This document shows, piece after piece, positions 9,001 to 12,000 of a DNA stretch of 64,000 bases. Where the stretch lies: NCBI RefSeq assembly GCF_058153355.1, contig NZ_JBLWLY010000002.1; one strand, 5' to 3'. Every line of letters starts with the position of its first letter. The first letter of the stretch is position 1. Origin of the DNA: a plasmid. The position numbers were made by a program.

Positions 9001-12000
9001 AACCGTCTCCATAAAGTGACGAACTTTTTTCAACAGTGGCCATATTGAACGGCACTGATGATTACGGGTTATTGTCTCATGAAGAGCCGGCCACATCACT
9101 GACAGCAGTGACTTCAGGCCTTCAGCACCAGACAGCCTGAACCAGTTAATCCATCGCCCGACAGATTTAGTAATCTAGGGCTGGTTTTTCTTCAGCTGTT
9201 GCGGTTCGAAAGTGCCATTACGATCACGCAGAGTACGGATTTCCAGAGGTTCATCTCCAGTAGTGATAATCTTCGTTAAGCAACCATTGCGGGAATTGCT
9301 GCCAGATCTAAGCTGATTTTTCTCGCACCCAAGATGATGAGTCATATTAGCATTGAGTACGGTTTCATTTTCAGCATCCAATCAAACTGACTGAGATCTT
9401 CAGGATTTTTGAGACTTTTGGCTAGTTCATTAGCTAAAGCCCGCAACTTATTAGATGTCAACTGTTTTTCATTCATAAATTCACCTTCATTTGATATCAA
9501 ATTAAATAGTTCAACATCAGAGAATTATACAAACTTATGTACAGGCTCCTATGATCTTCGAATCCTGAAGATTATAGTGAAAATAAGTTTTCACGTTGAA
9601 ATCCCACATAGTTAGTATATGATAAATAATCATGGATGACCTGATTAACCTCTTGGGGTAGTGCTTTTATAGAAGAATAAATATTCTACTAATTTAATAC
9701 ATCACCTAAAATAGTATTTTTTATGGTTGGTTGAAGGTCGTGGTGATGATGTTAGTCCTTTTGAGAATATTCCAGTGCCAGATCTTACTTATAATAAAGG
9801 GGCTTGGCAGTTTGGATAAGCTATTGTCCTTATTCCACTAATACAAACTTTTTGTAAAGTATATTAAATATACTTCATTTCATACTGAAATCCCCGGAAG
9901 TATTCAATCAAACAATTACACCATAAAAGGAAGAGGGGGCCCTAATTAAGTTGTCAAGCATGTTTATGATACCTGCAGGGTATAAATTTTCTGGCTGCAA
10001 GCAGATACATATAAAACGTCTTTATTGATCCTACCCACATAATATGGACACAGTCGTAAGTGAGGCTCTGGTTTTCAAATTGTTCCGGACTGAGACCACC
10101 ACACCAACGGTGCCGTCGCCAGCGATTGTAATCGCACTCGATATAACTAAACACTGTTGCCCGCACTATTTCCCGATGGATAATAGTGTTCTCCGTGGAG
10201 ATATTCCATTTTCAGCGAATGAAAGGAGCTTTCCACGCAGATTATGCCGCTTTAGCAGTACTTGATAATCTGCCGAAATAGTGCTGACCTCCACGGTCCG
10301 TGTGAACGATAACATTCCGGGGGCTCCTGCGTCGCCACAGAGCCATCTGCAGGCCATTGCAGGTCAGCTGTGCCGCCAAGCGGCATCGACCAACCAATAA
10401 TTGCACGTGACTACAGGTCAATTACCACTGTCAGATACAGCCAGCTTTCATCTGTACGTAAGTAAGTGATGTCCCCCTGCCTACTTCTGGTGTGGGTCAC
10501 TGACGTAAAAATCCTGCGTCAGCAGATTTTCTGACACATGCAGGTTGTGTGCACACTAACTGACGGGGCTGAACTTCTGGGAGGATTTTGCCCTCAGCCC
10601 CTGACAGTGCAGGTTTGTTGCCACGGTTTTTACGTTGAAGTGGTAACCCTGAGCGCACTGTTCATCAGTCAGGCGTGGTGCACAGTAACTACTGGAAGCC
10701 CATGATCGATGTGACACCATCAGTCACATCGGTGGATGTAGGAAGATTCGCTGGGGGTGTCCAAGGATGGGTAAGCGAGGTGGAGAGCGATTTACTACGC
10801 TCGTCTTGCCAACGGAAGACTGTATCTGCTGCTGATATACCTGAAGAACGCAAAAGATGATCTTAGTGAGAAAGAAAAAGCCGTTATGAAGGCATTGACA
10901 CAACAGCTGAAGTAATTATGTCAGTTTTGATTGATGGCTGGCCTCTCGACAACGAGGAAAAATTTATGGAAAAGAAACTTTTCGATGCTCTTATCAGTAG
11001 CATGGAGGAAATGGTTGTCACTGAGAATGGCCAAATCCAGCCAGCCGCAGAACATGTTCACCGCCATACATTGCCGGATGTGAAAGCCATTCGTAAACAT
11101 GCCGGAATGAAACAGACAGAATTTGCTGAAGTGGTGGGGGCTAGCGTTGACCTCGTGCGCAGCTGGGAACAACAACGGCGTATTCCCTCTGGTATTGCGT
11201 TGAAAATGTAATGAACGCATCCCACACAATTAAACACGGAGCAGTATGATGGTTAAAAGGGGGAAATTGGCAGGTGTGGAGCCTCGCAGATTTCCGGCAT
11301 CATAGTGCCCAATACGGGATGCATAAGCTCCCTCAGACTGGAAACTCCACGAATGAAATATACACCGGTTGGCGTTGATATCGCAAAGCATCTGATTCAG
11401 GTTCACTTCATCAATGAGCACACAGGTGAAGTGGTGGATAAGCGACTACGTAGCAGAGATTTTCTGACGTTCTTTACCGCGAACCCTGCCTGATTGGTAT
11501 GGAGGCTTGTGGAGGCTTGCAGCACTGGGCGCTGACAGCGCGTGAGCTGAAAAAACAGGGTCATAAAGTCCGGTTGTTGCAGGCCCGCTTTGTTAAGGCA
11601 TTCGTCATGGGCAATAAGAATGATGTGATGGATGCCCGGGCTATCTGGATGGCGGGTCAGCAGCCTGGTAAAGAAATTGCCGTAAAAACAGAAGAACAGC
11701 AGTCGGTACTGGTTCTGCACCGTTCCCGCATGCAACTGGTGAAGTTCCGGACCGCACAATTAATGCCCTGCACGGGACGTTACTGGAGTTTGGTGAAACC
11801 ATCCACAAAGGCCGGGCAGCGATGGTTCGGGAGTTCCCTGAAGCACTGGAGCGGATGAAAGAGAGACTGCCACCGCATCTCATCACAGTACTGGAAAACC
11901 AGTACAACAGTTTGAGTAAGCTGGATTCACTGATAGAGTGATATCGAAAAACAGCTTACCAGCTGTGGCGAAACAGAATGAAACCTGTAAGCGGTTGCTG

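Follow-up and report, generated by a model that had tools for sequence, protein, structure and literature searches.

The ospD1-side copy of a repeated virulence-plasmid cassette and its probable role in remote VirB anti-silencing of ospD1

The DNA at positions 9661-10025 of the sequence analysed here, a 64,000-nucleotide stretch of plasmid contig NZ_JBLWLY010000002.1 (the window), is one of three copies of a short cassette on Shigella/EIEC (enteroinvasive E. coli) virulence plasmids, the one on the ospD1 side, and very probably acts in remote VirB anti-silencing of ospD1. The evidence obtained in this analysis comprises an inverted repeat, the identity of its box to the icsP site, the geometry of the locus, AT-rich islands, conservation and a core present in three copies. 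The block has a GC content of 32.6% and, by window self-BLASTN and pairwise alignment, is 97-98% identical to a sister copy at 34204-34803, which is located between icsP (ATG at 33464, minus strand) and ospZ (ATG at 35043, plus strand). The match consists of two segments, 9661-9724, which aligns with 34204-34267 at 96.9% identity, and 9723-10070, which aligns with 34455-34803 at 98.0% identity. A likeness of this kind cannot be due to chance. The initial annotation had described the block as the icsP-upstream module without a 186-bp insertion; the copy relationship is real, however, the extra segment of the icsP/ospZ copy (34268-34456) measures 189 bp in this window by pairwise alignment. The ospD1 copy of pWR501 has 3 bp (TTG) more than that of the window, and a 186-bp difference on pWR501 would follow from the sequences if the icsP-side copy of that plasmid is also without the TTG. 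The core of the extra segment matches an unannotated element found on many plasmids, and folding of six homologues with RNAalifold yielded no consensus structure that was convincing. The left edge of the block at 9661, as annotated initially, is exact, but on the right the similarity continues past 10025. From 10021 onward it enters an IS3-family terminal repeat, which self-BLASTN also places at 7446, 31390 and 52181, so that 10025 marks where the non-IS part ends. The PLSDB and PGAP records leave 9661-10025 unannotated, except for a PGAP IS66 tnpC pseudogene that overlaps the right end from ~9954.

Pattern scans reveal that the block contains the VirB box ATTTCATACTGAAAT, an inverted repeat, at 9877-9891. 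This sequence is present twice in the window, the second time at 34610-34624 in the sister copy, and it is identical to the validated icsP VirB site (Box 1/Box 2, reverse complement), which was reported as 5'-ATTTCAGtATGAAAT-3' (Karney 2019). In the alignment the flanks of 9877-9891 are likewise identical to those at icsP over more than 100 bp, with a single 1-bp indel as the exception. VirB sites have been defined as two 7-nt half-sites, 5'-RWGAAAT-3', in inverted orientation around one spacer nucleotide, ATTT(C)CWYnRWG(G)AAAT (Karney 2019), and the box has one mismatch to the strict pattern, which is shared with the validated icsP site. A scan with ATTTCWYNRWGAAAT allowing at most one mismatch gave three sites in the window, compared with 0.42 expected, and none of 100 shuffles reached three. 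Eight inverted-repeat VirB sites were described on pWR100, including one named 'ospD1 intergenic' (Karney 2019), and this eight-site set was reproduced exactly on pWR501 by the pattern scan. VirB occupancy at ospD1 has also been reported in the literature. The box is exactly kept in S. flexneri 5a, S. sonnei and an EIEC O121 plasmid. By its pattern and by its identity to an experimentally VirB-bound site, 9877-9891 is the predicted VirB loading site (virS) of this plasmid lineage.

The known remote VirB site of icsP and ospZ (Castellanos 2009, Weatherspoon-Griffin 2018, Basta 2013) has an identical 15-bp repeat and flanks that are 98% identical. It is centred at -1137 from the icsP start (Picker 2023), and in the window the centre of the icsP box is 1,153 bp from the icsP ATG. 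The centre of the main ospD1-side box lies 1,297 bp upstream of the ospD1 ATG and ~1,267 bp from the inferred transcription start. Both target genes are encoded on the minus strand, left of their cassette; in each case the box is oriented alike relative to the promoter, at a distance above 1 kb, and an AT-rich, H-NS-prone stretch separates the two. The ospD1 locus accordingly has the icsP-type layout, with a VirB site ~1 kb or more upstream, on the promoter-facing side, of a VirB-dependent gene. There are also differences, since the ospD1 copy is without the 189-bp segment, has only IS debris to its right and no divergent partner like ospZ, is backed by a second box 289 bp nearer the gene, and is at a locus where ~700 bp of transposase pseudogenes separate the sites from the promoter.

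The initial annotation placed ospD1 at 7910-8587 on the minus strand, which is confirmed by the annotation of near-identical plasmids. The gene is an intact ORF of 225 amino acids encoding an anti-activator of MxiE, and the protein is 97% identical to OspD1 of S. flexneri (5a), with 7 amino-acid changes. The core promoter occupies 8617-8677 on the minus strand and features a MxiE-box-like sequence, CAATGATTTTTTTAGAT, at 8677-8661, a -10 element AAAAAT at 8631-8626 and a putative start at G 8617. The MxiE-like box of ospD1 and its 29-nt spacing to the -10 were published previously (McKenna 2022), and the -10 was placed by means of that spacing. The MxiE-like box of the window has a G>A change compared with pWR501. 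The ospD1 promoter on the minus strand was missed by a simple consensus scan. The activity of the ospD1 promoter on a reporter has been found to be 18- to 19-fold VirB-dependent. We take 8617 as the start from the reported VirB-site positions of -978 and -1270, which both map to this same base; it gives a 29-nt leader before the ATG and falls 8 nt after the independently defined -10. The initial annotation had set against its own proposal the case in which the start and regulation of ospD1 both map within about 300 bp of the ATG. The putative start is indeed near the ATG, but the regulatory sites are remote. The assignment of ospD1 as the target, originally made from position and orientation, is supported by the icsP-like geometry, by Karney 2019 and Picker 2023, and by the title of McKenna & Wing 2020 (J Bacteriol 202:e00072-20), which states that ospD1 is regulated remotely by VirB and H-NS. 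Additionally, ospD1 is one of four loci where the VirB/H-NS interplay has been studied (Picker 2023), and it is also listed among loci with VirB motifs.

A second VirB-like box, TTTTCACGTTGAAAT, is located at 9588-9602, 59 bp outside the block, with 2 mismatches to the consensus, and has a 17-nt stretch, TTTCAnnnTGAAATCCC, in common with the main box. It is weak by sequence alone, as sites with at most two mismatches number 13 in the window compared with 5.9 expected. The distance between the two boxes is 292 bp in the three reference plasmids, pWR501, S. sonnei and EIEC; in the window the second box is 289 bp closer to ospD1 than the main box. Control of ospD1 reportedly involves two VirB sites, at -978 and -1270, of which at least one is needed for VirB control, and mutation of the sites is said to result in loss of VirB-dependent activation in S. 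flexneri 2457T. The H-NS silencing region of ospD1 is said to extend from -1120 to -820. Since 292 equals 1270 minus 978, 9588-9602 is probably the published -978 site, an identification for which we rely on the reported coordinates and this arithmetic fit. We infer both this assignment and the exact start site. Because VirB control reportedly needs only one of the two sites and the second is outside the block, deletion of 9661-10025 alone may leave the VirB dependence of ospD1 intact, a point that was absent from the initial annotation.

Compared with the published ospD1 region (McKenna & Wing 2020), the window contains the same locus, and the 292-bp spacing in the reference plasmids, the 193-bp core described below and a start 29 nt from the ATG all fit. 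A 3-bp deletion at 9718 moves the main box of the window from -1270 to -1267, and the altered MxiE-like box and the changes in OspD1 are further differences. Control of ospD1 by VirB and H-NS presumably holds in this plasmid lineage too. Several observations stand against the proposed control, namely that among plasmid and E. coli records identity to the ospD1 region of the window reaches 99.4% at most and none is co-linear over 20 kb, that the lineage has the deletion and the changed MxiE-like box, that the consensus scan misses the ospD1 promoter, that the second box is weak by sequence, and that VirB, to reach the promoter from its sites, must act across ~700 bp of GC-richer IS debris.

The base composition reveals two AT-rich islands, with 28-34% GC at 9400-9750 and 22-28% GC at 8550-8750, in a window with a mean of 44%, and the IS remnants have 46%. 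Like icsP, the locus thus has AT-rich sequence separating its VirB site from its promoter, and H-NS is predicted to bind there. The left part of the cassette, segment A (9661-9724, 64 bp), has 18.8% GC and is common to the icsP copy by self-BLAST and alignment, and elsewhere there is only a weak 60-bp match to it. Segment A presumably lies inside the H-NS-silencing region reported for ospD1. The segment is also in the published H-NS region at icsP.

In the proposed mechanism the working part of the cassette would be the 15-bp inverted repeat, a virS site for the loading of VirB, a DNA clamp that resembles ParB and depends on CTP. At 30 °C, H-NS would coat the AT-rich DNA upstream of ospD1, both the island at ~9400-9950 that includes segment A and the promoter region at 8550-8750, and silence the promoter. 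At 37 °C, VirB would be made and would load at 9877-9891 and at the weaker second box at 9588-9602. Loaded VirB may then close into a clamp and slide or spread leftwards to the ospD1 promoter, where a local change in supercoiling and remodelling of the H-NS complex would allow ospD1 to be transcribed from a start ~29 nt before the ATG. CTP-dependent loading of VirB at virS and its sliding have been published, as have VirB spreading, the roadblock effect and the involvement of supercoiling. The VirB dependence of ospD1, its remote regulation and the loading-and-sliding mechanism are taken from this literature. In the ParB-parS system, the P1 parS BoxA and the pINV parS (ATTTCACGGTGAAAT) feature an inverted repeat of the same half-site family, and the protein is likewise a CTP-dependent sliding clamp; in contrast, the output of VirB is relief of H-NS silencing and not plasmid segregation, and its CTP hydrolysis is weak.

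The cassette is a mosaic of an AT-rich segment, an nleF-like tail, a spacer with the VirB site, an IS110-family remnant and an IS3-family terminus. Next to segment A, 9727-9819 on the plus strand is the fossil of an nleF-like type III effector gene, of which the 3' end remains, with 30 codons (LVEGRGDDVSPFENIPVPDLTYNKGAWQFG) and a stop. In tblastn the last 30 residues of E. coli NleF match it with 70% identity (E = 3e-8), the stop codon is at the same position as that of nleF, and there is a DNA match to the nleF 3' end too. In attaching-effacing E. coli, nleF encodes a type III secretion effector that inhibits caspases; the cassette, in contrast, has a truncated fossil in which the C-terminal LQCG is WQFG. 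An intact ORF of ~189 amino acids is absent, as only residues 160-189 align and nothing upstream is detectable by tblastn. The 189-bp extra segment of the icsP/ospZ copy was considered as more of the nleF-like gene and rejected, as neither tblastn with NleF nor alignment gave such similarity. The spacer, 9820-9931, is 112 bp long with 28.6% GC by alignment and composition. The idea that the VirB box was inherited from DNA downstream of nleF was rejected, as the similarity to the E. coli nleF region ends at the stop codon. The spacer is followed at 9932-10020 (minus strand) by the remnant of an IS110-family right end (ISSfl4/ISEc20-like), identified by BLASTN and ISEc20 matches, which contains the terminus and the last transposase codons and is oriented with the element interior to the right. 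It has 86-88% identity to pWR501 39382-39436 and 93319-93369, which adjoin ISSfl4 transposase genes. The two ISSfl4 copies diverge ~31 bp past the stop codon, which puts the VirB box ~45 bp outside the IS110 remnant. The IS3-family terminal repeat with a C-terminal transposase remnant, 10021-10166 on the minus strand, has a further copy at 34804 and is the right border of the cassette in both window copies; Pfam rve_2 is found in the ORF at 9954-10166 (E = 2e-8). A mobile, MITE-like element was rejected, as there are no inverted repeats in 9560-10120 and the three copies have different end points.

BLASTN of the block against the whole of the complete plasmid pWR501 determined that a 193-bp core, 9774-9966, is present in three places, on the ospD1 side (17xxx), on the icsP/ospZ side (219xxx) and at 140027-140219. 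The third match is exactly 193 bp long with 98.4% identity, and only 9774-9966 is common to all three copies. Their alignment has very few variable positions and none inside the VirB box. The third copy is flanked by other repeated elements, with no obvious virulence gene adjacent. A 193-bp sequence reportedly occurs at three virulence-plasmid locations, one of them upstream of ospD1 with a VirB site, and 9774-9966 is presumably this sequence. The cassette likely spread by copying. It is conceivable, though doubtful, that the core is a portable anti-silencing module that brings genes within 1-2 kb into the VirB regulon. The VirB loading site would then have arisen in the 3' flank of a dead nleF-like gene beside an IS110 end, and IS-driven rearrangements would have carried it to three plasmid sites, with icsP, ospZ, ospD1 and a further target at the third copy. 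In addition, VirB clamps loaded at these copies might connect plasmid segments that lie far apart; the role of the third copy and the bridging are speculation. An improbable alternative is primarily architectural, in which the three cassettes are VirB nucleation centres that gather distant plasmid segments into foci, or serve as a VirB sink, and the effect on ospD1 is secondary. VirB is a relative of ParB, VirB foci depend on the binding site, the authors of that work speculate that self-interaction joins several sites, and the three copies are dispersed on pWR501. However, pairing between copies is unsupported by the present data or the consulted literature, and single-locus reporter plasmids reproduce VirB-dependent regulation. 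An architectural role is also compatible with remote anti-silencing of ospD1.

Decayed transposase genes of the IS630 and IS256/Mutator families (46% GC, minus strand) were found by Pfam and PGAP at 8959-9478. The ORF at 9175-9381 matches Pfam Transposase_mut (E = 2e-8), PGAP pseudogenes of the EIEC plasmid map to 8959-9096 and 9181-9476 of the window, and these remnants take up the greater part of the DNA that separates the VirB sites from the ospD1 promoter. In a different reading, the block is only a by-product of IS rearrangement, perhaps bound by VirB, that has no part in ospD1 expression, the VirB dependence of which would be indirect or proceed via 9588-9602. In favour of this, the cassette is made of gene and IS debris, with an IS3-family terminus bordering both copies, and the third copy sits amid repeated elements with no obvious virulence gene beside it; moreover, if the two sites are redundant, as is reported, 9877-9891 would be individually dispensable. 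Against this, the box together with 100 bp or more to its left and right is the same as at icsP, where the box is essential, bar the 1-bp indel, the box is invariant in S. flexneri, S. sonnei, EIEC and the window lineage, and the published title and summaries credit ospD1 control to remote VirB sequences. A passive block is quite improbable.

That the block yields a small NleF-derived peptide from the ORF at 9727-9819, or a small RNA, has next to no probability: the 30-codon ORF has a TTG start, and in one strain PGAP annotates a 45-amino-acid ORF over the same stretch of the icsP copy as 'non-LEE-encoded type III effector F', but just the last 30 of 189 NleF residues are left with the upstream part undetectable, the ORF matches no Pfam or Rfam family, and the third copy truncates it at 9774. 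A structured RNA was rejected, as Rfam scans found no family in either copy, and 8400-10400 gave one chance-level match to snR75 (E = 0.24), far below the gathering score.

Remote VirB control of ospD1 is supported by these results and was already published in 2020, and the window adds no new biology to it. The additions made here are that the VirB sites are unchanged in one more plasmid lineage, itself slightly divergent, that the cassette was assembled from an nleF-like effector tail and an IS110 end, and that the shared segment A can presumably be placed in the region reported to be needed for H-NS silencing of ospD1, as well as in the published icsP H-NS region. Only at four loci, ospD1 among them, has the anti-silencing of H-NS by VirB been dissected, and the ospD1 locus shows that the reach of bacterial regulators can exceed 1 kb. 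OspD1 restrains the second wave of Shigella effectors until secretion, and the switching of ospD1 is part of the core virulence timing circuit.

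BLASTN of 9400-10200 against the window, followed by alignment, determined that 9661-9724 matches 34204-34267 with 96.9% identity and that 9723-10070 matches 34455-34803 with 98.0% identity. These matches, together with a shared VirB box, bear out the initial annotation that the same module is present at the ospD1 side and at the icsP side. The sister copy is flanked by icsP (ATG at 33464, minus strand) and ospZ (ATG at 35043, plus strand). An insertion found only in the icsP-side copy had also been described and is indeed there, however, its length in the window is 189 bp (34268-34456, junction with AT microhomology) and not 186 bp. 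The ospD1-side copy on the complete reference virulence plasmid pWR501 is 3 bp longer (TTG) than the window copy, and the discrepancy would be accounted for if the icsP-side copy on pWR501 is without this TTG. From 10021 on, the similarity runs into an IS3-family terminal repeat that is repeated elsewhere in the window. The ospZ gene beside the sister copy is an uninterrupted 230-codon ORF (35043-35735). OspZ is truncated in S. flexneri 2a, and the lineage of the window may make the full-length protein.

The ospD1 gene is a minus-strand ORF of 225 codons (7910-8587), a location upheld by the annotation of ospD1 at the equivalent place in near-identical large virulence plasmids (pINV). Its product is 97% identical to OspD1 of S. 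flexneri 5a, with 7 amino-acid changes. The region around the cassette and ospD1 (7800-10200) reaches a best identity of 99.4% to pINV of Shigella sonnei, S. boydii, S. dysenteriae, S. flexneri, and enteroinvasive E. coli (EIEC). No identical plasmid was found in PLSDB or complete E. coli genomes, and no record co-linear over 20 kb was found, with only 48% co-linearity in a 20-kb stretch (26000-46000), which places the window in a pINV lineage that is slightly divergent.

The main VirB box features the inverted repeat ATTTCATACTGAAAT, which is present in both copies (9877-9891 and 34610-34624) and is the reverse complement of the icsP VirB site, ATTTCAGtATGAAAT (Karney et al. 2019). The window holds 3 matches to the Karney consensus with at most one mismatch versus 0.42 expected. 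Eight inverted-repeat sites were reported on pWR100, one of which lies in the ospD1 intergenic region (Karney 2019). The complete pWR501 sequence was assembled and then searched with the window block and the VirB pattern, which yielded exactly these eight: ospD1, parS, ipaH7.8, icsB, spa47, the third copy of the cassette, icsP intergenic, and icsP intragenic. A second VirB-like box, TTTTCACGTTGAAAT, is located at 9588-9602. It has a 17-nt extended stretch, TTTCAnnnTGAAATCCC, in common with the main box and is separated from it by 292 bp in pWR501, an S. sonnei plasmid, and an EIEC plasmid. A further VirB-like box with 1 mismatch, ATTTCATCGAGAACT, overlaps the icsP start codon at 33456-33470 and is the "intragenic icsP" entry among the eight sites of Karney 2019. 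Two-mismatch VirB-like sites number 13 in the window versus 5.9 by chance, and on these counts some of them may be real. Such repeats are seen at 6406-6420, 27327-27341, 39467-39481, and 41642-41656, one of them within the ipgB2 ORF, downstream of ospD1.

The layout is as at icsP, with the cassette to the right of a minus-strand target gene, and the distance from box centre to ATG is 1,297 bp for ospD1 versus 1,153 bp for icsP. On its right side the block is bordered by IS debris only, without any plus-strand gene. Between box and gene, AT-rich islands are found at 9400-9950 (28-36% GC) and in the promoter region at 8550-8750 (22-28% GC), and the ~700 bp that separate the islands consist of decayed transposase genes of the IS630 and IS256 families (46% GC). 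The proposal that ospD1 is the target, made earlier from position and orientation, is supported by the icsP-like geometry and the AT-rich islands as well as by Karney 2019, by Picker 2023, where ospD1 is one of four loci with VirB and H-NS studied, and by McKenna 2022, where a PospD1-lacZ fusion was 18- to 19-fold VirB-dependent.

The window block matches three places on pWR501, of which the third (140027-140219) is exactly 193 bp and 98.4% identical to window 9774-9966. A study of ospD1 from 2020 reportedly mapped the start site and placed two VirB regulatory sites, at least one of which is needed, centred at -978 and -1270, as well as an H-NS region spanning -1120 to -820; one VirB site is said to lie on a 193-bp sequence at three conserved plasmid locations. 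We take 9774-9966, which agrees in length, to be this sequence, and the 292 bp between the boxes, equal to 1270 minus 978, presumably reflects the spacing of the same two sites. Counting back -978 and -1270 from both boxes leads to one base as the putative start site, pWR501 18625, which is the G at window 8617. This G is 29 nt upstream of the ospD1 ATG and 8 nt after the hexamer AAAAAT. A 3-bp deletion at 9718 shifts the main box to -1267 in the window. The H-NS region presumably corresponds to window 9437-9737 (30% GC) and takes in the second box and segment A, the 64-bp left end of the cassette (18.8% GC). A distance of 29 nt between the -10 element and the MxiE-like box, CAATGGTTTTTTTAGAT, was reported (McKenna 2022), which independently fixes AAAAAT as the -10. 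The MxiE-like box in the window, CAATGATTTTTTTAGAT (8677..8661, minus strand), features a G>A change. On these sequence fits the reported site details are credible, though still a matter of inference.

Judged from its sequence, the cassette is a mosaic. The AT-rich segment A (9661-9724) is followed by an nleF-like type III effector gene remnant made up of the final 30 codons plus stop (9727-9819), a 112-bp spacer that holds the VirB site (9820-9931), and an IS110-family right-end remnant (ISSfl4/ISEc20-like, 9932-10020) that is 86-88% identical to the ISSfl4 right end. An IS3-family terminus closes the cassette on the right. The nleF-like stretch is 70% identical to residues 160-189 of E. coli NleF (E = 3e-8) with the stop in register, and it also matches the nleF 3' end at the DNA level. 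It is found in both copies (9727-9819 and 34459-34551) and ends in WQFG versus LQCG in E. coli NleF. In one S. flexneri plasmid, PGAP annotates the corresponding ORF as "non-LEE-encoded type III effector F". The remnant represents a fossilized effector gene carried by pINV, and the literature searched contains no mention of it. The spacer shows no similarity to DNA downstream of E. coli nleF. Comparison of two pWR501 copies determined that ISSfl4 ends ~31 bp past its stop codon, which places the VirB box ~45 bp outside the IS110 remnant; the 193-bp three-copy core terminates inside this remnant. No terminal inverted repeats and no Rfam family were found for the cassette. The end points differ among the three copies, which argues that they spread as rearrangement passengers rather than through transposition of their own. 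Variation among the three copies is minimal, with none in the VirB box.

The third copy on pWR501 lies between other repeated elements, ~110 bp upstream of a small hypothetical gene (139551-139916) and 2 kb downstream of virA. Within the 189 bp absent from the ospD1 copy there is a ~99-bp non-coding core (34326-34424) that has unannotated counterparts at 80-86% identity on >1,000 Enterobacterales plasmids spanning many replicon types, including IncF, IncX5, IncHI1B, and ColRNAI. Its centre, CCGTATAG...GGAGTACAC, is highly conserved, and its 3' hairpin keeps pairing while the sequence varies. The single-sequence fold has z = -2.3, RNAalifold on six homologues gave no convincing consensus structure, and no Rfam match was found. 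This core may be a novel plasmid RNA or a novel single-strand DNA signal.

VirB, a ParB-like CTP-binding protein, loads at its loading site, virS, and then forms a closed clamp that slides along DNA (Jakob 2024). At icsP, VirB spreads toward the H-NS-bound region, a LacI roadblock between the VirB and H-NS regions stops anti-silencing, and a local supercoiling change suffices to relieve silencing (Picker 2023). Since the ospD1-side box is identical to the icsP box in sequence and context, ospD1 is most likely regulated by an icsP-type mechanism. VirB would load at 9877-9891, and also at 9588-9602, would then move leftwards over the AT-rich island, and would relieve H-NS silencing of the ospD1 promoter at about 8617. 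An architectural or bridging role of the three copies is improbable, is compatible with this explanation, and draws on the requirement of VirB foci for binding sites. A purely passive fossil is slightly less probable still, as the identity of the box to the icsP site, its invariance, and the published regulation all speak against it. A coding or RNA product of the cassette is very improbable. The cassette copy is real and the assignment of ospD1 control to it is right, both having been published already in 2020. The make-up of the cassette from an nleF tail and an IS110 end is a small descriptive addition, the nleF part of which is already flagged by automatic annotation.
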